A DNA stretch of 10,802 nt from a virus (taxonomy: Duplodnaviria; Heunggongvirae; Uroviricota; Caudoviricetes), in the IMG/VR virus record IMGVR_UViG_2698536392_000023, positions 1-10,802 of that record; one strand, given 5' to 3'. Numbering within the stretch: the stretch's first letter is position 1; every line of letters begins with the position of its first letter. Positions 1-10,802 of this stretch are shown one piece after another. A program made the position numbers and the translations under genes. Under the pieces are notes generated by a model that saw only the letters and a program-made list of their open reading frames with translations, was not told the origin of the DNA and searched no databases.

Positions 1-258
1 CAGAACCACAACAAAGTAATACTCCGGGGCTCTGGTGGCGCTGATTACTGTGCCTTCTCCACCTGTCGGCTTCACCACAACAGGTGTGCTCACATCACCT
101 TCTGCGACAATCGCCTGAATAAGTGCTGCGCCATCATCCGTATACGAAGAAAACGGCCCACCGTATGGTTGCCATCCTTCACGAATTTTTTGCGCAAGTG
201 CATCAGCAAGGTCTGACGGCGATGCCGCCCTGACCACATCGTAGTGTTTAAATGCCAT
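1..258 (-). CDS. 5' part of a CDS whose N-terminus is in the window (86 codons, continues past position 1); DUF1737-like N-terminus as recalled for prophage NanS-p/YjhS-type esterases
   Basis: ATG at 258-256 (minus) preceded by GGAGGA 5 nt upstream; reverse-complement translation MAFKHYDVVRAASPSDLADALAQKIREGWQPYGGPFSSYTDDGAALIQAIVAEGDVSTPVVVKPTGGEGTVISATRAPEYYFVVVL with no stop before the window edge. Absent from the ORF track, which holds only ORFs with a stop in the window; the track ORF 90..356 is a different frame. Family assignment is from memory. Confidence 0.6.
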   Translation of the reverse strand, partial: MAFKHYDVVRAASPSDLADALAQKIREGWQPYGGPFSSYTDDGAALIQAIVAEGDVSTPVVVKPTGGEGTVISATRAPEYYFVVVL

Positions 259-451
259 GAATCCTCCCGGCCGGGATAATATTGTGAGTAAAATGAGGAG
301 CGGGCTGAAATCCGGAAGTTACAGGACAATGGCAGAAGAGAGACAACAGCCCGCAATACGAAAAAGGCCGCGCTATTGCGCAGAGTGATTACTGTCGGAT
401 ATTATTCGCCAGCTGAAATATTACTTCACGTTTTGTTGTTTATTCCTTGCC

Positions 452-480
452 GCCCGCGTCTCCCTGCGCGGGCTTTTTTT
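452..480 (+). terminator. Rho-independent terminator-like hairpin (GCCCGCG-N8-CGCGGGC followed by T7), plus-strand orientation
   Basis: 7-bp GC-rich stem 452-458/467-473, 8-nt loop, T-run 474-480. Confidence 0.5.
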
Positions 481-491
481 GTCCATAAGAA

Positions 492-511
492 AGCCCCTCC
501 GGAGAGGGGCT
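492..511. other. 8-bp perfect inverted repeat AGCCCCTC-CGGA-GAGGGGCT; with the 452-480 hairpin forms a back-to-back hairpin pair
   Basis: Arms 492-499 and 504-511 are exact reverse complements; on the minus strand it is followed by TTCTTAT. Confidence 0.45.
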
Positions 512-707
512 GGAGAGTGGCGCTATGTGCCATTGCATGGTGCCGGGTGCCTCCCGGTGAATTCAGTACCAGCACCTGAATCCGCGATTATCCCATATAC
601 CTACTCGCTGATTGCCCCTCCGCACAGGGGGATTCACCATGCCAGTTTCTTTTAACAAACTCCCCGCAAACCAGACAACAGTCAACCGCCTGAATTGTGA
701 GACATTT

Positions 708-733
708 AAAAAAAAGGCCCGCAAAAGCGAGCC
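708..733 (-). terminator. Rho-independent terminator immediately after the tRNA cluster
   Basis: Minus-strand read GGCTCGC-TTTT-GCGGGCC followed by T8 (plus A-run 708-715); 7-bp stem with one G-U pair. Confidence 0.75.
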
Positions 734-747
734 AGGGAAAATAAGTG

Positions 748-824
748 TGGCGCGTTGTACTGGATTCGAACCAGTGACCGATTGCTTAGAAGGCAATTGC
801 TCTGTCCGGCTGAGCTAACAACGC
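748..824 (-). tRNA. tRNA-Arg, anticodon UCU (reads AGA)
   Basis: Reverse complement GCGTTGTTAGCTCAGCCGGACAGAGCAATTGCCTTCTAAGCAATCGGTCACTGGTTCGAATCCAGTACAACGCGCCA folds as a cloverleaf: perfect 7-bp acceptor stem, GCTC/GAGC D-stem, anticodon loop CTTCTAA, T-loop TTCGAAT, encoded CCA. Confidence 0.85.
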
Positions 825-837
825 ATGATGCATATAA

Positions 838-914
838 TGGACCGCCATCGGGGACTTGAACCCCGCGCAGCCAGCTTCGAAGGCTGGCGCTCTTTCCTGA
901 TGAGCTAATGGCGG
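838..914 (-). tRNA. tRNA-Arg, anticodon UCG (reads CGA)
   Basis: Reverse complement CCGCCATTAGCTCATCAGGAAAGAGCGCCAGCCTTCGAAGCTGGCTGCGCGGGGTTCAAGTCCCCGATGGCGGTCCA: 7-bp acceptor stem CCGCCAT/ATGGCGG, anticodon loop CTTCGAA, T-loop TTCAAGT, encoded CCA. The 5' nucleotide is C, which is unusual. Confidence 0.75.
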
Positions 915-921
915 TATGTGA

Positions 922-997
922 TGGTGGACCTTGCTGGATTTGAACCAGCGGCCTGGCGATTATGAGTCGCTCGCTCTCACCACTGAGCTAAAGGGCC
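922..997 (-). tRNA. ileZ: tRNA with anticodon CAU; body resembles the Ile2 (lysidine, ileX/ileZ-type) class rather than Met
   Basis: Reverse complement GGCCCTTTAGCTCAGTGGTGAGAGCGAGCGACTCATAATCGCCAGGCCGCTGGTTCAAATCCAGCAAGGTCCACCA; anticodon loop CTCATAA, T-loop TTCAAAT, encoded CCA. Acceptor position 3-70 is a C/T mismatch. Ile2 versus Met isotype is from recalled similarity and phage context. Confidence 0.75.
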
Positions 998-1032
998 GGG
1001 AGCAGAATAATAACGGTCCGTAATTAATTCCG

Positions 1033-1060
1033 CAATAAAAAACCCGCTCGGCGGCGGGTT
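1033..1060 (-). terminator. tR'-like intrinsic terminator downstream of the late promoter
   Basis: Minus-strand AACCCGC-CGCCGA-GCGGGTT followed by TTTTATT; sits about 45 nt downstream of the candidate -10. Confidence 0.65.
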
Positions 1061-1107
1061 GTAGAAACTCTTCTAATGTCAGGCATAAAAAGCCCATCGT
1101 TATGACG

Positions 1108-1135
1108 AATTTACCACAGATTCCGGAAAAATCAA
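1108..1135 (-). promoter_or_regulatory. pR'-like late promoter (Q-modified), sigma70-type
   Basis: Minus-strand TTGATT (plus 1130-1135), 16-nt spacer, TAAATT (plus 1108-1113), immediately downstream of the Q-like stop codon at 1141. Confidence 0.55.
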
Positions 1136-1140
1136 CCTTG

Positions 1141-1962
1141 TTACCTAGTTACCTTTTTTAACTGCCGCTCAGCCCATGCTTCTTCAATATCAAACCGGGT
1201 CACCAGCGCATCATAGAATTTCTTAACTGTTTTTTCCCATGACGCGCGTGTTATCTGGTTTGTCACCTCGCATATAGCATTAAATGCCTCCGTTGATGGT
1301 AGTCTTTTATAGCCACGACCACCACAACGCTGGCAGTCTCTGATAACAGGCATACCACGTTTTACCGACTCTTCACGGTAAAGGGCGACACCACGCCCAC
1401 GGCAATCCTTACAGGCGGTGTAAACCTCACCCTTTCCGCCACACTCCGGACAGGCAACTTTTACCACCTCCCTGACTTTTTTCCATTCTTCCCAGTAAGA
1501 CGGATACACACCTTTCGTACACTTTGCCCATACCGGCGGCTTACCATCCGGATACTGGACCTTGTTTGTAAAAACTACGCTTTCAATAAATTTTTCCCCA
1601 TAGCAACAAGGGCACTGCTTTTTACTCGCTGCGCTGCGGGCATAATCCTCAAAAGCGTACGAAGCCATAATGCGCATCACTAACGGTTTTATTTCTGCCG
1701 GAAGTTTTCTCAACGCCGCCACACGATCGCACCGACTGAGTGCATAATCTGCCAGTAATTCTGTTGCCCGCGCCCTGTCATTCATACTGATGCCCATTTT
1801 CCCCAGGAACGCAGAAAACCCCATCTCAGCCCGATTCTGTGTCATGCTCTGCGCGGCCATCACATCAGTGATACTCAGCGCATCTTTTGACGTTGAGGCC
1901 GATGCATCGGTCAGGCAAGGGGATTTTGGGGAGTAGTATTTCGGTAAATCTTCCAGTTTCAT
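1141..1962 (-). CDS. Q-like late antiterminator (273 aa) with three CxxCxGxG zinc-finger motifs
   Basis: Complete ORF; position directly upstream of the pR'/tR'/tRNA block and downstream of rusA; motifs CPECGGKG, CKDCRGRG, CQRCGGRG; start ATG overlaps the rusA stop (ATGA). Confidence 0.65.
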   Translation of the reverse strand: MKLEDLPKYYSPKSPCLTDASASTSKDALSITDVMAAQSMTQNRAEMGFSAFLGKMGISMNDRARATELLADYALSRCDRVAALRKLPAEIKPLVMRIMASYAFEDYARSAASKKQCPCCYGEKFIESVVFTNKVQYPDGKPPVWAKCTKGVYPSYWEEWKKVREVVKVACPECGGKGEVYTACKDCRGRGVALYREESVKRGMPVIRDCQRCGGRGYKRLPSTEAFNAICEVTNQITRASWEKTVKKFYDALVTRFDIEEAWAERQLKKVTR

Positions 1963-2333
1963 TTTTTGACCTGCCCTTCAAGCATTATGGGGTAAATCTT
2001 CACCCCCAGACGTCCACCAGATACTGGCTGAGCACGAACGATATTGATTTCATCAAACTGCTCATCGTCCATTAGCAACCCCGCATGCGTCAGCGCATCC
2101 AGCGGCGCTTTCAGAATATTGTCCAGGTCACGGCGGCGCTTATCCGGTGGCTCGGCAATAATCTTTATCGCCAGCCTTCCGGACAGGTTTAATTTCAGCC
2201 GCTGCTGGCGAACAATAAGTGCCACATCCCGGCGATAACGCTCACCGGCTTTTGATACAAAATATGTGCTGCCACGACGTCGCCAGTAGGTGTTCACCGT
2301 CGGCGGGTAAGGCAAAACAAACTCTATACGCAT
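1959..2333 (-). CDS. rusA: RusA-family Holliday junction resolvase (124 aa)
   Basis: Typical size; N-terminus LPYPPTVNTYWRR and the DKRRRDLDN acidic motif resemble RusA; SD AAGAGG 6 nt upstream of ATG at 2333. Confidence 0.85.
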   Translation of the reverse strand: MRIEFVLPYPPTVNTYWRRRGSTYFVSKAGERYRRDVALIVRQQRLKLNLSGRLAIKIIAEPPDKRRRDLDNILKAPLDALTHAGLLMDDEQFDEINIVRAQPVSGGRLGVKIYPIMLEGQVKK

Positions 2334-2345
2334 CAGTAACCTCTT

Positions 2346-2873
2346 TTACCCGAGCACGCCGGTTGCAAAGGCGTGATCAAGAAAACGAAAAATTAAATCA
2401 ACCTGGGAACCATGCTTTTCTTCGAACGCCAGTGGATCCGCATGAAGCTCGTTGTGATGCTCCCGACACAGCGGTAGCGTGAAAATATCGTGGGATTTTG
2501 TTCCCATTCCGCCCTGACCATGACCAATCAGATGATGAGGATCGTCCGCTGGCTTACCACAACACGCACACGGCTGTGTCTTTACCCAGCGTGTGTATTT
2601 CTCATTTACCCAGCGGCGACGTTTAGGTCGTTTCATGAAGGATTCCGGAGACTCCGGATCAACGGCAATGCTGACCACCGTCTTTTCCTGTGGTGGGTTC
2701 TGTTGCTGGTGGGTGTGAGGTGGTAGCGCAATATTTTTTGTGCGCTGCTTCAGTATGCTGGTGGCGGTCTGTTCTCCCGGTATGATGTCGCTTTCACGGT
2801 ATACGGAGCGGATTTTTTCCGCCGGTAATCCCAGAGAACAACGCGCTACTGCCTCAGGTAGTGCATCCACCAC
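2346..2873 (-). CDS. HNH-like zinc-finger protein, DUF968/YdfU-like C-terminal region (175 aa as drawn; start uncertain, may be the 3' part of a frameshifted longer gene)
   Basis: Motif CACCGKPADDPHHLIGHGQGGMGTKSHDIFTLPLCREHHNELH. ORF begins with GTG and has no recognisable SD; the same frame stays open upstream to 2954; 28-nt overlap with the upstream ORF. Confidence 0.55.
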   Translation of the reverse strand: MVDALPEAVARCSLGLPAEKIRSVYRESDIIPGEQTATSILKQRTKNIALPPHTHQQQNPPQEKTVVSIAVDPESPESFMKRPKRRRWVNEKYTRWVKTQPCACCGKPADDPHHLIGHGQGGMGTKSHDIFTLPLCREHHNELHADPLAFEEKHGSQVDLIFRFLDHAFATGVLG

Positions 2874-3448
2874 CTGATTGCAGGCCGCCCACAGGATAAT
2901 TCGGCCAGCGATAACTCCCTCTCCTGCGTGCCGCTTATTGCGTGACGGATGACGTCAATCATCCAGGCAACCAGATTCTGCTGAGCAAGTTGATCGAGTG
3001 ATTCTGATGTCTGGTCGCGCAGCTGGTTGTCACAGTGCCAGCACAACACCATCGCGCCGGTACCGTAACGGTGAATGACTGTTTCGCTGTGATGATAATC
3101 GCCGTGTGGCCACTGGCAGGATTTCACGTGACGTAATAACCAGTCAGACAGTGCACCAGCGCCGCCAGCTGCACGAATCACCCGCTCATCGCTGAAAAAT
3201 GGCAGCAGTGATTTATCTTCCGCCAGCGGCTGGCGAACAGTAGGAACCGCTCCAGATGGCAGCGCCCGCATGTTTTTCGGTTCCGGCTCCACCAGTATTC
3301 TGCCGTTATGGAATGCTGACATTGATTCACGGCCTGGCTTAACGATAACCAGACCGAGTTCCGGTACCAGAACAGGTCGAAGTAATACCCGCACATTACC
3401 TCCAGACGCGCTGACGGTAGCAGGCATGTGTCCGTGGCAGATGTGCAC
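2846..3448 (-). CDS. HNH-like motif protein (about 200 aa as drawn; start codon uncertain)
   Basis: Motif CQWPHGDYHHSETVIHRYGTGAMVLCWHCDNQL. ORF-track start is a GTG; first ATG is at 3427; overlaps neighbouring ORFs at both ends. Confidence 0.5.
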   Translation of the reverse strand: MHICHGHMPATVSASGGNVRVLLRPVLVPELGLVIVKPGRESMSAFHNGRILVEPEPKNMRALPSGAVPTVRQPLAEDKSLLPFFSDERVIRAAGGAGALSDWLLRHVKSCQWPHGDYHHSETVIHRYGTGAMVLCWHCDNQLRDQTSESLDQLAQQNLVAWMIDVIRHAISGTQERELSLAELSCGRPAIRWWMHYLRQ

Positions 3449-3668
3449 GAACAGGAAGATATACAGAAACGGTCCAGGTCAGACGATCAGCGTTCAGACT
3501 CCGCTCCACACGGACACCGCGACGCAGATACGCCTCTTGAGGCATATCTGCCTCATCGATCGTACAGAACAGATAGTGAAACCAGCCATACTGAGGCGCA
3601 CGAAAACGCCTCCCCTGCTTAATTTCCAGGTCGGCTTCAGAATTGTGGGATTTTATGTGTTGTGTCAT
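3396..3668 (-). CDS. Hypothetical protein, 90 aa
   Basis: ATG at 3668 with GGAGAA SD 6 nt upstream; the C-terminal 18 codons overlap the next ORF in another frame. Confidence 0.5.
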   Translation of the reverse strand: MTQHIKSHNSEADLEIKQGRRFRAPQYGWFHYLFCTIDEADMPQEAYLRRGVRVERSLNADRLTWTVSVYLPVRAHLPRTHACYRQRVWR

Positions 3669-3717
3669 CGGATTCTCCGGTGACAGCAGGTGTCAGTTGT
3701 TCAGGCTGACTGCGCGA

Positions 3718-3746
3718 ATTGTAAGGCAATACGCCGGAATGTACAA
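3718..3746 (-). promoter_or_regulatory. Candidate sigma70 promoter for the downstream accessory operon
   Basis: Minus-strand TTGTAC (plus 3741-3746), 17-nt spacer, TACAAT (plus 3718-3723). Confidence 0.4.
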
Positions 3747-3771
3747 ACAGAAAACCCGTCAGTAAGACGGG
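3745..3771 (-). terminator. Intrinsic terminator of the YgiW-like moron
   Basis: Minus-strand CCCGTC-TTACT-GACGGG followed by TTTTCTGTTT, beginning 19 nt after the stop codon at 3790. Confidence 0.7.
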
Positions 3772-3789
3772 CTTAACAAGCAGGGGCGG

Positions 3790-4134
3790 TTACTTTAATA
3801 ATTTCAGTGCCTTTACATCAACTTCAACACTGCTCAGGTCTTTATCAATTTCACCCTCAATTCTTACTTTGTCTTTCGGAGAAACATTCTGCCCGGCCCA
3901 TACGCTGTCATCGATATCCGTGACAATTGTCCCGCTATTATCACGAAACTCATAACGTTCATCACCCACTTTTTTAACGATGCTCCCTTCAAGGATAACC
4001 CATGCATCATCCTTCAGTTCTTTTGCCTGCGCTACTGTTGAACGCTCTGCTTCAGGCCCTTGGAAACCGCCCTGCTGTGCAAAAACGCCAAAAGACACAC
4101 CGGAAATAAGTGCTGCAATCAATACCTTTTTCAT
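3790..4134 (-). CDS. YgiW/YdeI (BOF, bacterial OB-fold) family secreted protein with signal peptide (114 aa); prophage moron
   Basis: N-terminal signal peptide MKKVLIAALISGVSFGVFA; family-typical motifs QGGFQGP, DDAWV, SGTI, VSPKDKV, DKD..SVE.DVK; SD AGAGGG upstream; own terminator. Confidence 0.8.
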   Translation of the reverse strand: MKKVLIAALISGVSFGVFAQQGGFQGPEAERSTVAQAKELKDDAWVILEGSIVKKVGDERYEFRDNSGTIVTDIDDSVWAGQNVSPKDKVRIEGEIDKDLSSVEVDVKALKLLK

Positions 4135-4253
4135 TCATAGCCCTCTTTCAGAGATGAACATTCAAACAGCATTTTCAGTATGATAAAGCGCGGGTGCGTT
4201 GAGGATGCCTGACACATCAGAGGTGGCGAGGGATTTCTCCCCCGCCAGGTCTC

Positions 4254-4409
4254 TTACTCCTCAGGTTCGTAAGCTGTGAAGACAGCGACCTCCGTCTGGC
4301 CGGTTCGGATTCGTACCTCGCAGAGGTCTTTCCTCGTTACCAGTGCCGTCACTATGACGGTAATACAGATGACGATCAGGGCGATTAACATCGCCTTTTG
4401 CTGCTTCAT
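4254..4409 (-). CDS. hokD: Hok/Gef-family type I toxin (51 aa), closest in my memory to HokD/RelF
   Basis: MKQQKAMLIALIVICITVIVTALVTRKDLCEVRIRTGQTEVAVFTAYEPEE; SD AAGGAG upstream of ATG at 4409. The ORF-track entry 4254..4466 is the same frame extended to an upstream ATG. Confidence 0.85.
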   Translation of the reverse strand: MKQQKAMLIALIVICITVIVTALVTRKDLCEVRIRTGQTEVAVFTAYEPEE

Positions 4410-4422
4410 AGCCTGCTTCTCC

Positions 4423-4451
4423 TTGCCTTTCGGCGCGTAAGAGGCTAACCT
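4423..4451 (+). promoter_or_regulatory. Candidate promoter for a sok-like antisense RNA
   Basis: Plus-strand TTGCCT (4423-4428), 17-nt spacer, TAACCT (4446-4451); predicted transcript runs antisense across the upstream in-frame ATG (4466) and its GAGG SD. Confidence 0.35.
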
Positions 4452-4584
4452 ACATGTGTCTAGCATGAAATTGGCCTCAGATTAATGTTAGGCGTCTTGC
4501 AGGACGCGTAATGTTAACTGGGGCTTTTCTCTGTCTGCCTTACGGTGGCATGCCCGAGGCAGACAGCCTCAAGCACCCGCAGCA

Positions 4585-4612
4585 ATTCTACTTAACTCTC
4601 GCTTTACCGCAA
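4585..4612 (-). promoter_or_regulatory. Candidate promoter of the hok mRNA
   Basis: Minus-strand TTGCGG (plus 4607-4612), 16-nt spacer, TAGAAT (plus 4585-4590); gives a leader of about 170 nt, typical for hok mRNAs. Confidence 0.4.
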
Positions 4613-4624
4613 ACCGTTTTTACC

Positions 4625-4646
4625 CGATATGGGAATTCCCATATCG
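4625..4646. repeat. 22-bp perfect palindrome CGATATGGGAATTCCCATATCG
   Basis: Exact reverse-complement symmetry; lies between the stop of the 34-aa ORF (4655) and the candidate hok -35. Confidence 0.9.
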
Positions 4647-4654
4647 TAATGAAT

Positions 4655-4759
4655 TCAGTTCCCTAGTCGATCCATCAAAAACACAACCAGGCAGTAAACG
4701 CCCACAACAGCAATAACAGCCAGCGCACCTTCCATTGCCAGTGAAATATCATCCGACAT
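4655..4759 (-). CDS. Small hydrophobic protein, 34 aa (MSDDISLAMEGALAVIAVVGVYCLVVFLMDRLGN), predicted single transmembrane helix
   Basis: ATG at 4759 with strong SD AAAGGAGGG 4-5 nt upstream; absent from the ORF track because it is under 60 aa. Confidence 0.5.
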   Translation of the reverse strand: MSDDISLAMEGALAVIAVVGVYCLVVFLMDRLGN

Positions 4760-4794
4760 ATTCCCTCCTTTGGTGTTAATCCCGGCGAACGTTT

Positions 4795-4878
4795 TTACCC
4801 CCACCGACAAATAACATATACTAAAAAATCAATAGCTATAGCAACGCCTGTAATTGCAAAGGCTTCAGGCCAGATCAT
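4795..4878 (-). CDS. Small hydrophobic protein, 27 aa (MIWPEAFAITGVAIAIDFLVYVICRWG)
   Basis: ATG at 4878 overlaps the stop of the DUF551 ORF (ATGA); SD GGAGG 8-12 nt upstream. Confidence 0.45.
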   Translation of the reverse strand: MIWPEAFAITGVAIAIDFLVYVICRWG

Positions 4879-5460
4879 TGGCGCACCTCCTGCGGCGGTT
4901 CTGGTAGCGGCATCCAGTCGGTTACATTGCGGCTCTGTGTTTCGAAAAATTCATCACCATTACGGACTACATCAAAAAACTCACCGTCTCGATATTGCGC
5001 ATAAAGAACGAATGCGCCATCACATAAAATAATTACGTGCTGACCATCATCCGGCATTCGCTCACTACAGCTTATCCAATCATCCAGAGTTACCGGATAG
5101 TTGGTTGACGTTTCCGAGATTTCCCGAAAATTATTGGTTGACGAACCCTTTTTTTTCCCGAAAGTTTCCAGCCTGAAGCATGGCGGCGCTGTCTGGCGGG
5201 GCAGCATATAGCGGCACGTATATTTCCGGTTCCTTATCAGCACCGGGTTGCTCTTCCAGTGAGAATGTCTTTCCGGTAAATCGATTCATATAAAGCACGG
5301 GCTCTGCTTCCAGCGAAGCCTGAGCAACAAGGGCCAGTGCTAAATCCAACTCAATTGCCTCGAGAGAATTTTTGAATGCTGTCTGTTTTACTGCAAATTT
5401 CATCGCCTTTACATTTTCACTAACATGACTGATTAACTGCTCTTTTGTAAAAGTGGTCAT
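4875..5460 (-). pseudogene. DUF551-domain phage protein split into two frames at an A8 (plus-strand T8) tract
   Basis: Frame A 5460..5131 (ATG at 5460, SD AAGGAG) ends ...REKKGFVNQ; frame B 5243..4875 reads ...FGKKKGSS... and carries the DUF551-like C-terminus (DDWISCSERMPDDG...WMPLPEPP). The frames switch at the T8 run 5149-5156. Confidence 0.6.
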
Positions 5461-5516
5461 CTCATTCTCCTTTGATGCGAATGCCAGCGACAATTGAAGC
5501 CTGATAGCTAATTCAC

Positions 5517-5912
5517 TCACAATACCGCCTCCTGAAAATTGCCCTGATAGAACGCCAGTACACGCAGCATAACTTCACTCTTCCGGCACTCGCCACAGAT
5601 TATGTTCTGTTGTCTGTCGTAGCGGCGTATTTCTCCGTCTGGTAACTTTCGAATCAATGTCTGGTCGGTTGTTTTCTCCGCTGCCTTACGCCATACGCGA
5701 TACACCTGTTCTGATGTAAAAACACCGTATTTACCGGGCATGTATAAATCGCCGCAAGCCAGTACATCCACAAGGCAACGTCTGACTGAATGCCAGCCTG
5801 CTCCCGTCGCTCTCTCCAGTTGTGATATCGTCATGCGTTCATTTTTGCGTACCAGCCCGATAATTCGGGCCTTCAGTTCTTCACGCTGTTCGTGTGTAAA
5901 AGGTTTCGCCAT
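5517..5912 (-). CDS. Hypothetical phage protein, 131 aa, possible winged-helix fold
   Basis: ATG at 5912 with GGAGG SD 7 nt upstream; segment TISQLERATGAGWHSVRRCL looks HTH-like. Confidence 0.6.
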   Translation of the reverse strand: MAKPFTHEQREELKARIIGLVRKNERMTISQLERATGAGWHSVRRCLVDVLACGDLYMPGKYGVFTSEQVYRVWRKAAEKTTDQTLIRKLPDGEIRRYDRQQNIICGECRKSEVMLRVLAFYQGNFQEAVL

Positions 5913-5927
5913 AAGCGCCTCCGGCTA

Positions 5928-6653
5928 TCACTTTTCCGACACAATACGACCGGATGAATCGACAATCTGCCGAACAATATCCCAGTGCTTGTTCAGATCC
6001 CGCAGCGCGGCGCAGACTCGCTCCCACTTCTGAACCTGACCTTTTGCTCGGCGCAGCTCGCGGTTAGCCACATGCAGCGATGGTAGAATCAGGTCATCTG
6101 CTTTCGTTTCAGTGAACGATTGCTGCAACTTCACAATGTCCTCCACCGCTTCTGTTTTAATTTCTTCCTGTGCAGCCGTTTCCTGGACTGGTAACGCAAC
6201 ACCTGCTGGCTGAGGAAGGGCTTTACCCTCCGTTTCAGCTACGGATGCAGCTTTCTGCTCTGCCGGTAAATCAACGCCCGGTATGCAGTAACGAAATTTA
6301 CCATCCTGATTCACGCGAATCAGACGCCCTTTGCTGATTGCCATTGCCAGCGATGAATTCGCACGGCGGGAGGTAATTCCGAACATCAATGCCAGCTCAT
6401 CCGCCGTTTGTGGGCCATGATGTTCAATCGCCTCAGTCAGCATTTGCGCTGTCACTTTCGGTACCGGTGACACTGGTTCACTTTCACCAGTCTGAGTCAG
6501 CCACCACATCGACCCCTTGTTATCCGCTTCACCACGGCGCTTCAGTTTCCACAGTTCGTTGACAGCATCTTCGCGGCTGATTCCAAGGCGCGATGCCACT
6601 ACCTGTGAAGAGGCTTTTTTCAGTGCTTTCAGTGCGTCAAATACAGTTTCCAT
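5928..6653 (-). CDS. Phage protein with two tandem winged-helix-like domains and a C-terminal coiled-coil (241 aa), possibly DUF1627-like
   Basis: ATG at 6653 with GGAGGA SD; internal repeat of HTH-like segments ([22 protein letters not shown] and [26 protein letters not shown]). The ORF-track start at 6671 is a TTG. Confidence 0.65.
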
Positions 6654-6674
6654 TAAAACGTCCTCCAACAAAAA

Positions 6675-7421
6675 TTACTTCACAACCCTCTGATTGCTGA
6701 CATTTGGACGCCAGCTATCCCAGTTAAACGTCACCCATCGACCACCGCTCATGGTCATCCGGTCCATAATCCTCTCACCAAGAAGCGTGCTCATTGCGGC
6801 ATGATTCAGGTTTGTTAACATCCCGACACTGCACAGTGATGCTGTCCGGCGATCAATTATCTGGTGTAATACCACCTGCTCGTTTTTCGTCTCCCGCTGA
6901 ACGCCTATTTCATCCAGGACCAGCAAATCAACCCCGCAAAGCTCCTGTAAAAATTTTTCCCCGGATTTGCCGTTGTCGTAGCTGTCATGCAACACGCTCA
7001 TGACATCAGACACGGTGACGATAATCACGCTGCGCCCCTTCGCCATCAGCCGGTTACCCATCGCCGCTGCAAGGTGATTTTTCCCGGTGCCGGTTTTACC
7101 GCTGAACACAAAATTCGTGCACCCGGTCATCAGTTCGTCAGCTATGGATTTGGCCTGGCTCAGCGCGTATTTTTGCCCGTCGTTCTGCACCTGATAATTC
7201 GCAAACGAGCATTTGCTGTGCAGAGGCTGGATGCCCGAACGATTCAGGATTTTTTCCACCCGCAACTGGCGATTCTGGCGGTTAATCTCCTCGCTGCGTT
7301 TTCGTCCTTCAGCAAGTTGCCATTCCCGCCACTCCTCCACCGTCCGGTACGGTGGAACCGCCCCCTGTGGTGCAAGTCTGCGAATACGTTCAAGAACCCC
7401 AACTGCCGCAATGTTTTTCAT
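6675..7421 (-). CDS. DnaC-like replicative helicase loader (AAA+), 248 aa
   Basis: Walker A GKTGTGKNHLAAA, Walker B LLVLDEIG, and colinearity with E. coli DnaC (MKN..., NRSGI.PLH..CSF.NY); SD AGGGGGTGA upstream. Confidence 0.85.
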   Translation of the reverse strand: MKNIAAVGVLERIRRLAPQGAVPPYRTVEEWREWQLAEGRKRSEEINRQNRQLRVEKILNRSGIQPLHSKCSFANYQVQNDGQKYALSQAKSIADELMTGCTNFVFSGKTGTGKNHLAAAMGNRLMAKGRSVIIVTVSDVMSVLHDSYDNGKSGEKFLQELCGVDLLVLDEIGVQRETKNEQVVLHQIIDRRTASLCSVGMLTNLNHAAMSTLLGERIMDRMTMSGGRWVTFNWDSWRPNVSNQRVVK

Positions 7422-7427
7422 GACACG

Positions 7428-8498
7428 TCACCCCCTGAATCCCGGCGGTATTTCAGTGTCCGGTTCAGAAATGTGATTCACGCAACGCTGGTTGTTCGTG
7501 CCGCTTACCGGGAGCAACCAGGGGTTTTCAAAATTCCGGTCCGGCCCAAAAAACGTCGTCGCTCGCTGAACAAATTCCGTTCCCGCTTTCCCGGTCGCCG
7601 CCAGGTATCTCGCGTAACGCCTCACACCATCCAGCATGGTCTCTGGTGGCACCCCCTCGCGCAATCTGGCCTTCCAGGCACTGAATGCGGATTTCTTCGG
7701 GTTTGCTCCGGCACGCAACGGGTACTCCCGCCAGACCTGTTCGAACACATCCGGATAATCCACTCGTCCCACAGACTGCCCGGTGTTTTCCGGGACTACC
7801 CGATCGGCTTCCCGCTGAATGGCGGAATCGGCTTCGGGCTGCTGCAGTTGGTGTGATTGCTCCGGCCTTGCGGTCATCACCTGCTGCACAGCGCCCGAAT
7901 CGGCTTTCAGCGCATACGCTGAATCGGCTTCCGGTGTCGTGCCTACTGGCTGACCAGGATTGACGGTCTGAACATCCCCTGCCTGGTTCGTGGCGTTTTT
8001 TACGCCATGGACCATAGTGTTTTGATCTTCTTGATCTGTATCTTTATCTGTATCTTTATCTGTCGTGACTCGTCGTGACATGTGCGTGACATTTCGTGAC
8101 GCGCCGTGACAATCGCCATTTTGTTCCCGCTTTCTTTCCCTCTCTCGCTGCGCCCTCTTGCGCTCTGCAGGAGATTTTGCGGTTTGCGAAATATTGCCGT
8201 TGTCCTCTTTAAGCACCTGGCGTTTTTCCCATCCAGTGATTAAATCACCATCAAGTACCCGCCCCTGCATCGTCTGCAAAATTGAATCAATTACCTCTTC
8301 TGTCACGTCGAGCGCACTTGCCAAATCTTCTGTCGTGACATCAATGTGACCTCGCGTGACATTTCGTGACGCGCTCACCAGGAGGTGGATATACACTGCC
8401 ATCACTGTTGCAATTGGCTGCCCTGACACCCTGGCAATTGTTCGCCACTTAGGGTCATTTGGCATGTCATGCCATAATCTGAGCCAGGCGTTAGCCAT
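7428..8498 (-). CDS. O-like replication initiator (replisome organiser) carrying internal origin iterons, about 356 aa
   Basis: Sits upstream of the DnaC-like gene; iteron arrays lie inside the coding sequence as in lambda O. Probable start is ATG at 8498 with SD AGAGGTGA; the ORF track starts two codons earlier at a GTG. Confidence 0.7.
   Translation of the reverse strand: MANAWLRLWHDMPNDPKWRTIARVSGQPIATVMAVYIHLLVSASRNVTRGHIDVTTEDLASALDVTEEVIDSILQTMQGRVLDGDLITGWEKRQVLKEDNGNISQTAKSPAERKRAQRERERKREQNGDCHGASRNVTHMSRRVTTDKDTDKDTDQEDQNTMVHGVKNATNQAGDVQTVNPGQPVGTTPEADSAYALKADSGAVQQVMTARPEQSHQLQQPEADSAIQREADRVVPENTGQSVGRVDYPDVFEQVWREYPLRAGANPKKSAFSAWKARLREGVPPETMLDGVRRYARYLAATGKAGTEFVQRATTFFGPDRNFENPWLLPVSGTNNQRCVNHISEPDTEIPPGFRG
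8034..8063. repeat. Tandem 12-bp repeat (ATCTGTATCTTT x2.5) encoding a TDKD repeat in the initiator
   Basis: Exact copies at 8034-8045 and 8046-8057, partial at 8058-8063; moderately AT-rich, adjacent to iteron array A. Confidence 0.85.
8064..8110. repeat. Iteron array A: five CGTGAC repeats at 10/11/10/10-bp spacing (candidate replication origin)
   Basis: CGTGAC at 8064, 8074, 8085, 8095, 8105; helical-turn periodicity. Confidence 0.8.
8334..8374. repeat. Iteron array B: four (C)GTGAC repeats at 10-11 bp spacing; includes a 21-bp exact copy of part of array A
   Basis: Repeats at 8334, 8345, 8355, 8365; GCGTGACATTTCGTGACGCGC occurs at both 8084-8104 and 8354-8374. Confidence 0.8.
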
Positions 8499-8569
8499 AC
8501 TCACCTCTTCTGATACCGAATCTTTTTACTCACGAGTTGCCGGAAGCGATTCGATATGGCTATTATCAC

Positions 8570-8995
8570 TCAATGCACTGCCACAGCATTTCCTGCCGGG
8601 CCACCACGGTTCATCTGATTGAAACCGGCGATTGCCACCGCGACAAAATCATCAGCGTCTCTCACCAGTCGCTCCCGCGTCTCCACCAGCTCCCGAAAAT
8701 AAGCTGAACTGTGGCTGCGCATTCTGGCCACCAGCAAAGGTGGCATTGCCTTTTCGATCGCTGGTAACAACGCCTGAATTTTTTCAACTGCATCAGGGGT
8801 GTCTTTCTCTACCCAGCGGAAAATTTTCTGGGTATTGCGAGCCAGGGCTTCCGGATGGCTGTCGTCATACAGTTCCGGGAACGTCATACCCAACTCAAAA
8901 TAAGCCTGGGTTATTCCAGCTGCTGGAACTTTCTCACCATCAGGATATGCCCAGGCATTCATCGCCATGCGGATGTGCTCATGTTTGATTTTCAT
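8570..8995 (-). CDS. ydaT: YdaT-like protein (cII position; family reported as toxic in Rac prophage), 141 aa
   Basis: Size and position downstream of the Cro-like gene match Rac ydaT; N-terminus MKIKHEHI; SD AGAGG upstream; 17-nt overlap with the ydaS-like gene. Family call is from memory. Confidence 0.55.
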   Translation of the reverse strand: MKIKHEHIRMAMNAWAYPDGEKVPAAGITQAYFELGMTFPELYDDSHPEALARNTQKIFRWVEKDTPDAVEKIQALLPAIEKAMPPLLVARMRSHSSAYFRELVETRERLVRDADDFVAVAIAGFNQMNRGGPAGNAVAVH

Positions 8996-9302
8996 GAATC
9001 ATTTGCCTCTTGATGCTTCGGGTATGATCGTTTTCGTCATTTGGTTGCTTCATCGACATATTCTGCGAATAACATGACGAGCGTCGTAAGTATGTCCAAT
9101 CAACATCAGGACGAAGTTCTTCACACAGGACACCACCTTTTGTTGCTCGTTCAATCGCAGGACATCTCTCAGCAGGCAACTGACGTACACCTTTGATCCA
9201 TTGATTTACGCTTGGAGGAGATACACCTAAAAGCCTAGCCATTGCTGATTGCCCACCGACAACAGCACAAGCTCGTTTGAATGAATAGTTATCTTTTTTC
9301 AT
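8979..9302 (-). CDS. ydaS: YdaS-like Cro-type HTH protein, about 107 aa
   Basis: HTH segment QSAMARLLGVSPPSVNQWIKG; ATG at 9302 with GGAG SD (the ORF track begins at an upstream GTG, 9323); divergent from the repressor across an operator region. Confidence 0.65.
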   Translation of the reverse strand: MKKDNYSFKRACAVVGGQSAMARLLGVSPPSVNQWIKGVRQLPAERCPAIERATKGGVLCEELRPDVDWTYLRRSSCYSQNMSMKQPNDENDHTRSIKRQMIHENQT

Positions 9303-9329
9303 CGAATGAACTCCAAAAAACACACAATA

Positions 9330-9359
9330 ATATTAGGCTTAGCCTAATGTGATTATCAA
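9330..9359 (-). promoter_or_regulatory. PR-like promoter for the ydaS-ydaT-replication operon
   Basis: Minus-strand TTGATA (plus 9354-9359), 18-nt spacer, TAATAT (plus 9330-9335); spacer contains operator O1. Confidence 0.45.
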
Positions 9360-9398
9360 TAGGCTATGCCTAACGCTTCGAGAGTAGGGATTGCCTAA
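9333..9398. promoter_or_regulatory. OR-like operator cluster: three TTAGGC-N3-GCCTAA palindromes spaced 25-26 bp centre to centre
   Basis: O1 TTAGGCTTAGCCTAA 9333-9347 (perfect); O2 ATAGGCTATGCCTAA 9359-9373; O3 TAGGGATTGCCTAA 9385-9398 (one half-site imperfect). Confidence 0.7.
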
Positions 9399-9426
9399 CG
9401 CGATGCGCATAGGAGACTATTAAGCA

Positions 9427-9903
9427 ATGCTTAGTGGTAAAGACTTAGGCCGAGCGATAGAGCAGGCCATTAACAAAAAAATTGCATCAGGAGCCGTCAA
9501 ATCAAAGGCGGAAATCGCACGTCATTTCAAAGTCCAACCACCATCAATCCATGACTGGATTAAGAAAGGTTCGATAAGTAAAGACAAACTTCCAGAACTA
9601 TGGCGTTTCTTTTCTGATGTGGTTGGTCCAGAGCATTGGGGGCTTAACGAATACCCCATACCAACCCCATCCACTTCAGATACAAAAAGTGAACTTTTAG
9701 ACATAAACAGCCTTTATCAAGCCGCCTCTGATGAAAAAAGAGCAATTGTGGCTTTCCTCTTATCTGGAAATGCTACGGAGCCTAGTTGGGTTGATCATGA
9801 CGTTCGCGCCTACATTGCCGCAATGGAAATGAAGGTAGCTAACTATCTGAAAAATCAAGAATCAAAACGGAAAAGCCAGAACATCACCAAGACAGGAACT
9901 TAA
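9427..9903 (+). CDS. racR: RacR-like prophage repressor (cI-position HTH protein), 158 aa
   Basis: Divergent from the Cro-like gene across operators; HTH segment SKAEIARHFKVQPPSIHDWIKKG; AGGAG SD; size matches RacR. Family call is from memory. Confidence 0.65.
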   Translation: MLSGKDLGRAIEQAINKKIASGAVKSKAEIARHFKVQPPSIHDWIKKGSISKDKLPELWRFFSDVVGPEHWGLNEYPIPTPSTSDTKSELLDINSLYQAASDEKRAIVAFLLSGNATEPSWVDHDVRAYIAAMEMKVANYLKNQESKRKSQNITKTGT

Positions 9904-9997
9904 ACTTATATGGTCCGACGGGAAATTCCTAGTTCCCGTTAGTTAACTCCTACTACCTCTCCCACAAACCATCACCTATTAGGTCGCACCCAAACCA

Positions 9998-10036
9998 TTA
10001 GGCATAGCCTACTGACAAGCAATTAGGCATTTCCTA
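9998..10036. promoter_or_regulatory. OL-like operators: two further TTAGGC-N3-(G/T)CCTA palindromes downstream of the repressor gene
   Basis: TTAGGCATAGCCTA 9998-10011 and TTAGGCATTTCCTA 10023-10036; centres 25 bp apart. Confidence 0.6.
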
Positions 10037-10040
10037 TAGT
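10012..10040 (+). promoter_or_regulatory. PL-like sigma70 promoter overlapping the OL operators
   Basis: CTGACA (10012-10017), 17-nt spacer, TATAGT (10035-10040). Confidence 0.5.
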
Positions 10041-10244
10041 TTTCCCATACCAACCCATCCCGTCCCACACAATACAGGGCAATACCTAGAGTTACCCGGC
10101 AGTGGTCAGGGATTAAGTAGCCAGCCCGAGGCGTATGAACATGACGGCGGGAACACTTTGTATAACAGCGCAGCAGGTTTTTAGTTCCGCTACCCCAGCG
10201 TTAAGGGGAAATGAGGTCAGCATGGATACTATCGAGCTCCGATC

Positions 10245-10802
10245 CCTAAAGTAACCAGAGCCAGGCTCACCATGGAAGACTGGAAAAAAATTTACAATGC
10301 AACGCCTGAAAAACACTTTATCCGTAACGCAATGCTTCTTGCGATTGTTACTGGTCAGCGCCGTGATGACATTTGCCATATGCGTTTTTCAGATGTGTGG
10401 AACGAACACCTGCATATTACCCAGGGAAAAACTGGAATGCGTCTGGCGTTACCGCTGACGCTACGCTGTGATGCCATTGGGATATCGCTAAAAGAAGTGA
10501 TTGATGGATGCAGGGACAGAATATTGAGTCCATACCTGATTCATAGTCGGCACCAAAAACAACCAAAACCAATGAGTAAAGACAACCTGAGCGATTACTT
10601 TGCCAAAGCGCGGGAGCTGGCTGGAATAATTCCACCAGCAGGAAAAACTCCGCCAACATTTCATGAACAACGTTCTCTATCAGAACGGCTGTACCGTGCA
10701 CAGGGTATCGATACAAAAACATTACTGGGACATAAAGTCCAGGCAACCACCGATCGTTATAACGATACTCGTGGTCAGGAATGGGTTAAATTGGTTGTTT
10801 GA
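10245..10802 (+). pseudogene. Lambda-type tyrosine integrase, C-terminal catalytic domain only (N-terminal about 175 aa missing)
   Basis: Colinear with the lambda Int C-terminus (TGQRR, HEQRSLSERLY, LLGHK, DRYNDTRGQEW, stop at 10802); in-frame stop at 10212-10214 and no Int-like sequence upstream in any frame. Confidence 0.8.

Follow-up and report, generated by a model that had tools for sequence, protein, structure and literature searches.

The stretch of DNA examined in the present study, called the window in the following, comprises 10,802 nucleotides (positions 1 to 10,802 of IMG/VR record IMGVR_UViG_2698536392_000023), and its RefSeq annotation and flanks identify it as the early region, with the regulatory sequences, of a lambdoid Escherichia coli prophage located between potB and potC. 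We will argue that a single illegitimate deletion of ca 4.4 kb in this Rac-like prophage has joined its leftward promoter (PL), predicted to be controlled by the repressor RacR, to the catalytic half of its integrase gene (int), a reading to which we assign a probability of roughly 85%. The original prediction, made from the letters of the window, was that a PL-like promoter points into a truncated integrase and that the early-left arm has been deleted. Its core holds up quite well, as intact relatives at potB/potC carry a full arm between the promoter and int, and the window lacks exactly that block.

The proposed deletion would have its endpoints in codon 6 of a DUF1391 gene, the first of the early-left genes, and in codon 186 of int. 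Left behind would be the RacR-controlled promoter and operators (PL/OL), the leader, a stub open reading frame (ORF) of 10 codons, and a promoter-proximal integrase remnant, called int' below, that encodes the catalytic domain only. Judging from lambda biology, such a prophage should be unable to excise by its own means, as it has no Xis and no Int with arm or core binding, and it would no longer carry the host-toxic division inhibitors DicF, DicB and YdfD. In lysogens, RacR would keep PL shut, and loss of RacR would lead to transcription through the stub ORF and int', possibly towards potCD.

Over positions 9300-10802, the sequence of the window recurs without a difference in the chromosomes of E. 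coli 2013C-4830 and 2012C-4227 (100% identity), and it shares 99.7-99.8% identity with those of 2013C-3492 and 90-3040. The whole window equals the 2013C-4830 sequence, except for one C-run indel at 4238-4242 (C5/C4), just downstream of hokD. The first two strains are O165:H25 of sequence type (ST) 119 and belong to clade A, and the other two are O172:H25 ST660 and belong to clade H, all within clonal complex 119 (CC119) of the E. coli that produce Shiga toxin (STEC) (PMC10132054).

Deletion junction and lost block

The junction was located between 10238 and 10239 by alignment to intact relatives, O103 RM8385 and EC11. In blastn, window positions 6541-10238 correspond to 9242-12939 of the O103 RM8385 locus (L002), with 98.5% identity, while positions 10239-10802 correspond to 17296-17859 of the same locus. 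The missing block amounts to 4356 bp relative to O103 RM8385 (between L002 12939 and 17296) and to ca 4.9 kb relative to EC11. A junction associated with microhomology or with an insertion sequence (IS) was considered and rejected, since neither microhomology nor an IS remnant is present at the breakpoints and the bases flanking the two of them differ.

In O103 RM8385, the promoter is followed by the DUF1391 gene (L002 12923-13075; the protein of the relative matches PF07151 with E=9e-29), DicF (13339-13390), dicB, ydfD, a frameshifted exonuclease-domain gene, xis and an int of 372 codons (L002 16741-17859), after which come a DUF2335 gene, a small hypothetical gene and potC. What the window has lost is thus most of DUF1391, the small RNA (sRNA) DicF, dicB, ydfD, the exonuclease gene, xis and int codons 1-185; the exonuclease gene is already frameshifted in both relatives. 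The losses named originally were N, kil, recombination genes and xis. Of these, xis has indeed gone, but the two relatives have no N-like gene, and the lost set is the one that runs from DUF1391 to the start of int. In an Rfam scan, no DicF or other sRNA was found in 9900-10802, and DicF was found only in the relative O103 RM8385, inside the deleted block. The DicF match in O103 RM8385 scores 76.7 bits; EC11 (L003 4060-5240) has dicB and gives no DicF match at the Rfam gathering score.

The Shine-Dalgarno sequence, the ATG and the first 17 nt of the DUF1391 gene (10222-10238) survive, and the stub ORF formed by their out-of-frame fusion to int ends 17 nt before int Met197. The ca 230 bp in front of the integrase, which had been described as non-coding, are in fact the native PL leader (10041-10221) plus these DUF1391 remains. 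Having lost its own xis and the N-terminal part of int compared to the intact relatives, the prophage appears to be grounded, and its excision-defective look was soundly deduced in the original prediction, both xis and the Int N-terminal domains being gone.

A trivial explanation would be an assembly error at the junction, or promoter and operator matches that arose by chance. Consensus promoter matches do occur in the window at chance rate (see below). However, four complete genomes, assembled independently and belonging to two serotypes, have the identical junction, the operators are some 15-fold over expectation and lie in the two expected places, and the promoter/operator block is conserved in K-12 Rac. 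We consider the likelihood of this explanation to be negligible.

Integrase remnant

The remnant comprises 187 of 372 codons (50%), that is, half of the integrase and not the last two-thirds as first thought. Its homology to integrases is real (PF00589, Phage_integrase, E=1e-19 over residues 9-178 of the remnant of 187 amino acids, aa), but it begins at 10239 rather than near 10245. While full-length relatives match both PF09003 (residues 1-64) and PF00589, the remnant matches PF00589 alone. When int is aligned to lambda Int (1z1b, E=9e-55), residue 186 corresponds approximately to lambda residue 171, and the crystallised catalytic fragment 1ae9 starts at int query residue 192.

All six catalytic residues are retained, those originally expected (R, H-x-x-R, H and Y) among them: R226, K249, H327, R330, H350 and Y359 correspond to lambda R212, K235, H308, R311, H333 and Y342. 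The arm-binding and core-binding (lambda ~75-175) domains are absent, which also agrees with the original prediction, and int' has no start of its own. Its frame contains the in-frame stop noted earlier (TGA, 10212-10214) and no start codon before ATG 10272 (Met197), which opens a 176-aa ORF. Residues 1-185 of the full-length relative gave no tblastn match, in any frame, in the window or in the 25 kb around it (best E=2), and an Int N-terminus displaced upstream into another frame is therefore not the explanation.

The annotation in RefSeq, made by PGAP, describes int' as "incomplete; missing N-terminus", a pseudogene. No second close DNA copy of int was found in the same chromosomes (one place per record, in a search that covers close copies only). 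The int family is present in 1635 of the 5426 E. coli genomes in the collection (~30%), and it is active elsewhere, since induced phages in GenBank carry full-length versions at 94.5% identity. From these comparisons, int' is best described as the remnant of a lambda-type integrase that lacks what a functional member of the family would need.

One may nevertheless ask whether int' could be a working gene, i.e. whether PL transcripts yield a 176-aa catalytic-only Int, perhaps through re-initiation downstream of the stub, with a selected role such as nicking, topoisomerase activity or interference with related integrases. The ORF at 10272-10802 is open with the six catalytic residues intact, int' is 100% identical in all four CC119 genomes, the stub ORF is preceded by a good Shine-Dalgarno sequence and ends 17 nt before the ATG, and the breakpoint is no more than one or two residues away from the boundary of the lambda Int catalytic domain. 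We have also counted in its favor that the isolated lambda C170 fragment reportedly retains topoisomerase activity (Tirumalai et al. 1997). On the other hand, the identity of the four genomes is uninformative, as the background rate leads one to expect zero single-nucleotide polymorphisms (SNPs) over 564 bp. PL would be repressed in lysogens and is short of consensus bases, PGAP calls the gene a pseudogene, and only a weak AGG is found upstream of Met197. The candidate role of ATG 10272 as a start that arose after the deletion was rejected: EC11 has CTG at this place, but the same 34-mer with ATG occurs in the full-length int of 1212 genomes, where Met197 is a frequent internal residue. Taken together, a working int' seems to us highly improbable.

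Promoter, operators and leader

The immunity region is of the Rac type. The RacR protein is identical (WP_000948454.1) in O103 RM8385, O157 TR01 and all four CC119 genomes. The product of the divergent ydaS-like gene is 88% identical to its K-12 counterpart, and the YdaT-like protein only 35%. The footprint-derived RacR operator consensus of K-12, (T/A)TAGGC-n3-GCCTA(T/A) (PMC9638921), equals the palindrome motif of the window, TTAGGC-n3-GCCTAA. The latter has five matches with at most two mismatches in the window, compared to 0.32 expected (0/200 shuffles), and all five are confined to two clusters, three of them in the racR/ydaS-like intergenic region (OR-type) and two downstream of racR (OL-type). 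The operator matches are thus ca 15-fold above expectation and are confined to two locations, those at which binding of a CI-like repressor would be expected. The spacing of the OL-type operators, 25 bp, is the same as in the OR cluster, and the OL block is kept in the K-12 Rac, O103 and O157 relatives, with divergence in the flanking sequence. No RacR sites have been mapped downstream of racR in the literature that we searched.

The PL-like promoter was indeed found downstream of the repressor gene, on the + strand and overlapped by the palindromes of RacR consensus. Its −35 element, CTGACA, is at 10012-10017 and its −10 element, TATAGT, at 10035-10040, with a 17-bp spacer in between and a predicted transcription start at ca 10047. 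One of the operators abuts and overlaps the −35 element, and the other lies in the spacer and covers the first three bases of the −10 element. The match to the promoter consensus, 10/12, is one of the two best in the window. What lends the promoter credibility is, however, not this match but the operator overlap, the fact that the block with TTGACA-17-TATAGT and the two operators has been kept in K-12 Rac, O103 RM8385 and O157 TR01, and the published derepression in K-12, where RacR depletion raises the expression of ydaG, ydaF, kilR and other genes 40- to 70-fold and that of xisR and intR ca 100-fold (PMC11014345; bioRxiv 10.64898/2026.09.06.749655).

Judged by consensus and conservation, PL lies on the far side of the repressor gene and reads away from the immunity region, and the promoter/operator block has the features expected of a lambdoid PL/OL region. 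By analogy, PL-like is a fair name, as the promoter would be the positional and functional counterpart of dicBp in Qin, which likewise stands before a DUF1391 gene. Transcription of int' from this repressor-controlled promoter, whose −35 element is mutated in the CC119 lineage, is plausible.

The predicted fold of the leader RNA is not more stable than those of shuffled sequences (z=+1.76), and there is no convincing + strand terminator from PL to the end of the window, nor onward to potC. A structured RNA or a terminator in the leader was rejected on these grounds. The sole terminator-like site on the + strand is a weak 5-bp stem at 10328-10343, within native int sequence.

An exact 13-nt direct repeat, CCCATACCAACCC, occurs at 9655-9667 inside racR and at 10044-10056, at the predicted PL transcription start. 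It is probably due to chance, because the PL copy is not exactly conserved in K-12 Rac.

The features discussed above are collected in Table 1.

Table 1. Positions of the regulatory, integrase and attachment features (window numbering).
Feature	Position	Strand	Sequence	Remark
OR-type operator cluster	9333-9398			racR/ydaS-like intergenic region; match to RacR consensus
OR-type predicted operator	9333-9347		TTAGGCTTAGCCTAA	
OR-type predicted operator	9359-9373		ATAGGCTATGCCTAA	
OR-type predicted operator	9384-9398		GTAGGGATTGCCTAA	
Weaker operator-like site	9420-9434		TTAAGCAATGCTTAG	over racR ATG
racR	9427-9903	+		CI-like repressor, 158 aa; 91.8% identity to K-12 RacR
Weak third OL-type site	9979-9993		TTAGGTCGCACCCAA	
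OL-type predicted operator	9998-10012		TTAGGCATAGCCTAC	11/12 positions of footprint-derived RacR consensus
OL-type predicted operator	10023-10037		TTAGGCATTTCCTAT	11/12 positions of footprint-derived RacR consensus
PL-equivalent sigma-70 promoter (predicted)	10012-10040	+	CTGACA-17-TATAGT	
Native untranslated leader of early-left operon	10041-10221	+		intact; 100% identity to O103 RM8385
Stub ORF	10222-10254	+		MDTIELRSLK, then stop; DUF1391 (ydaF/ydfA-type) start fused out of frame to int; TAA 10252-10254
Deletion junction	10238/10239			codon 6 of DUF1391 gene to codon 186 of int; unambiguous
int' pseudogene	10239-10802	+		codons 186-372 + stop; ~lambda Int residues 171-356
int' catalytic codons	R226 10359-61; K249 10428-30; H327 10662-64; R330 10671-73; H350 10731-33; Y359 10758-60			
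att core, potB side of prophage			TGAATAAGAAGG	bounds the element
att core, potC side of prophage			TGAATAAAAAGG	42,676 bp from potB-side core

Relatives and proposed history of the deletion

The same junction is present in 4/5426 genomes, namely 2013C-4830, 2012C-4227, 2013C-3492 and 90-3040, which are all four CC119 genomes in the collection. The CC119 genomes 88-3510, 88-3001 and JNE072929, sought for dating the deletion, are absent from it. Because the junction is shared by both clades, the deletion can be no later than the common ancestor of clades A and H, and it would thus be old, preceding their split and being vertically inherited since. Effector-carrying prophages have been reported to be stably kept since the CC119 common ancestor, and the age of the deletion agrees with this (PMC10132054).

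The prophage as a whole is 42.7 kb long, and its cargo includes the effector gene espK. The search for attachment (att) sites showed that the 12-bp core TGAATAA(G/A)AAGG survives at both prophage ends, while the empty site in K-12 has a single copy. potC is a known phage insertion site (PMC8065619, PMC11052207). Further decay is visible: elements of the IS3 family have inserted into a tail gene and next to espK, and the DUF968, DUF551 and DUF6645 genes are frameshifted.

The insertion splits the potABCD operon, and potCD is now 42.7 kb from the potA promoter. The C-terminal end of PotB is now phage-derived, the native ...KKVELE having become ...KKATEIDN (region L001 14229-14537, potB/potC).

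Every relative examined at potB/potC has the same order of repressor, DUF1391, ..., xis and int. With respect to its neighbors (DUF2335 gene, hypothetical gene, potC and att core), int' is placed as the full-length int is in the relatives. It hence appears to be the end of this same prophage and not of a different, adjacent element.

In the CC119, O103 and EC11 prophages, the DUF2335 gene and the hypothetical gene, of 67 aa, are on the opposite strand and separate int from the att core (L001 13580-14228). O157:H7 TR01 is without both, with int and potC within 167 bp of each other, and the pair has the look of cargo inserted between int and attP.

The sequence identities are mosaic. The racR side of the window is 99.3-99.6% identical to O103/O111-type prophages, and the int side is 93.4% identical to the int of O103 RM8385, while the int of EC11, a prophage with the same site and architecture and a different repressor, is 99.3% identical to the remnant. 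These values could also be explained by a history of two elements, in which the int' end stems from an older resident potC prophage and was joined to the racR phage by illegitimate or inter-prophage recombination. CC119 genomes contain ca 20 prophages each, and recombination between them has been seen (PMC10132054). However, the 42.7-kb element is bounded by a single pair of att cores, the common gene order of the relatives at the site means that ordinary lambdoid mosaicism explains the identities, and the junction is without the homology that would mediate an inter-prophage exchange. We therefore regard a two-element origin as unlikely; the end state and its consequences would be the same either way.

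Returning to the single deletion, a number of points weigh against it or against parts of it. There is no direct parent, as the left flank is nearest to the O103-type (99.6%) and int nearest to EC11 (99.3%), whose immunity differs, and how much was deleted, and what exactly it contained, is for this reason estimated from mosaic relatives. Consensus promoter sites number 12 in the window compared to 11.3 expected, which means that a match by itself is at chance rate. PL may also be weak, because its −35 element is mutated from TTGACA in the CC119 lineage. Furthermore, we infer the activity of PL, the binding of RacR at OL and the failure of excision from sequence. Finally, defective prophages of enterohaemorrhagic E. 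coli can reportedly sometimes be mobilised in trans (Asadulghani et al. 2009, as cited in PMC10132054).

An independent, smaller loss in the same arm is found in O157:H7 TR01 (L009 5202-6506), where xis and int are intact. Here, what comes after DUF1391 is a 171-aa ORF on the opposite strand and an exonuclease gene truncated at its N-terminus, and no dicB is annotated. Because of this second loss, the early-left arm appears to be deletion-prone in the potC prophage family.

Comparison with known systems

In Qin of K-12, a repressor-controlled leftward promoter precedes a DUF1391 gene, just as in the window. The Qin operon runs ydfA(DUF1391)-ydfB-ydfC-dicF-dicB-ydfD-ydfE to intQ, and the intact relatives of the window prophage have DicF, dicB, ydfD, an exonuclease-type gene and int. 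The intQ gene of Qin is defective, and both prophages are thus stranded with a defective integrase. They differ in that Qin has DicA and has retained the operon, while the window prophage has RacR, its operon body is deleted and its integrase has been halved by the same deletion. The promoter before ydfA in Qin, dicBp, is the repressor-controlled promoter of the dicBF operon, the products of which are toxic (PMC10448788).

K-12 Rac shares the operator consensus with the window prophage, and its PL/OL block differs by three substitutions, at −35 position 1 and at two spacer bases. RacR is 92% and YdaS-like 88% identical, and the leftward genes of K-12, including xisR and intR, are derepressed upon RacR depletion. 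Unlike the window prophage, Rac has a complete early-left arm and working Xis/Int, is inserted at ttcA and can excise. The window prophage, by contrast, is at potB/potC, has an unrelated lambda-type Int, has lost xis and half of int, and its YdaT-like protein is only 35% identical.

Lambda Int C170 (PDB 1AE9) has the same domain extent and the same six catalytic residues as int', but C170 is a laboratory construct, whereas int' is a natural deletion product without translation signals of its own that is known from sequence alone. The potC prophages of O157:H7 TR01 and O103 RM8385 share the attachment site, the Int family, an identical RacR and the PL block with the window prophage. By its annotation, the O157 version likewise lacks dicB and most of the exonuclease gene, and DicF, for which no scan of L009 was made, is probably gone as well. 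Both keep xis and a full-length int, and only the CC119 version has lost these two.

The event is one of ordinary prophage decay or grounding, and is another instance of a well-known kind. Its extent and content were not found described in the literature searched, while RefSeq already flags the missing N-terminus. It would represent a one-step route to permanent residence, in which the excision machinery and the toxic early genes (DicF, DicB, YdfD) are lost and immunity and espK are kept. In this way, the deletion would provide a concrete molecular reason for the stable effector prophages reported in CC119 (PMC10132054).

Sequence changes in the switch

The −35 element of PL is TTGACA in K-12 Rac, O103 RM8385 and O157 TR01, CTGACA in clade A and CTGGCA in clade H, the last by an A->G change at 10015. 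Two successive hits are implied, the first of them in the ancestor of CC119 and the second in clade H. Position 10012 belongs to the promoter, as −35 position 1, and to the adjoining operator, as its outermost base; it is C in the four CC119 genomes and T in K-12, O103 and O157. The possibility that this T->C change is private to two genomes was rejected, as all four carry C, clade H together with its extra change at 10015.

Clades A and H differ by 29 SNPs over the 25.5 kb compared. Outside the DUF6645-gene cluster, there are 12 SNPs in 11.5 kb of prophage, and 4 SNPs were counted in 11 kb of chromosomal backbone. Of the 12 prophage SNPs, 4 (9350, 9377, 9400 and 10015) are within ca 165 bp of operator/promoter DNA, and none is in racR, the leader or int'. 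The binomial probability of such a cluster is P ~2e-5, a value that comes from a post hoc test on four genomes only. The clustering may stem from selection acting on the switch, in a prophage presumably left without a way out by excision, or from a local mutational hot spot.

A more specific, and in our view rather doubtful, proposal is that the switch came under selection after grounding, with racR-ydaS-ydaT acting as an addiction-like lock on the effector prophage, and with selection tuning the switch and silencing a PL whose sole remaining output would be the free Int catalytic domain and read-through to potCD. In K-12, RacR loss frees the toxic YdaS/YdaT and Rac excision comes to the rescue, while here there would be no such exit. 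The locus also offers a natural test of RacR/YdaS/YdaT lethality where excision would be impossible. If they hold true across the ca 200 sequenced CC119 genomes, the −35 changes and the SNP clustering would make a small, clean case of regulatory evolution in a domesticated prophage.

Other features of the window

A cluster of phage tRNA genes is found on the − strand downstream of a Q-like antiterminator gene (748-997 and 481-671 region), with Arg-TCT, Arg-TCG and a CAT-anticodon tRNA, which RefSeq annotates as tRNA-Ile. The same region contains a match to the sRNA STnc100 (138 bits, − strand). A hokD/sok type I toxin-antitoxin locus is located at 4254-4578 (sok match 117 bits).

The replisome-organizer (O-like) gene has an internal repeat of ca 46 bp (8059-8104 and 8329-8374, 270 bp apart), and within it, in antisense, there is a hairpin with a 13-bp stem and a T-run at 7984-8014 (+). 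Possible roles for these elements are those of origin iterons or of an oop-like antisense terminator. In strain 2013C-3492, the O-like gene carries an indel.

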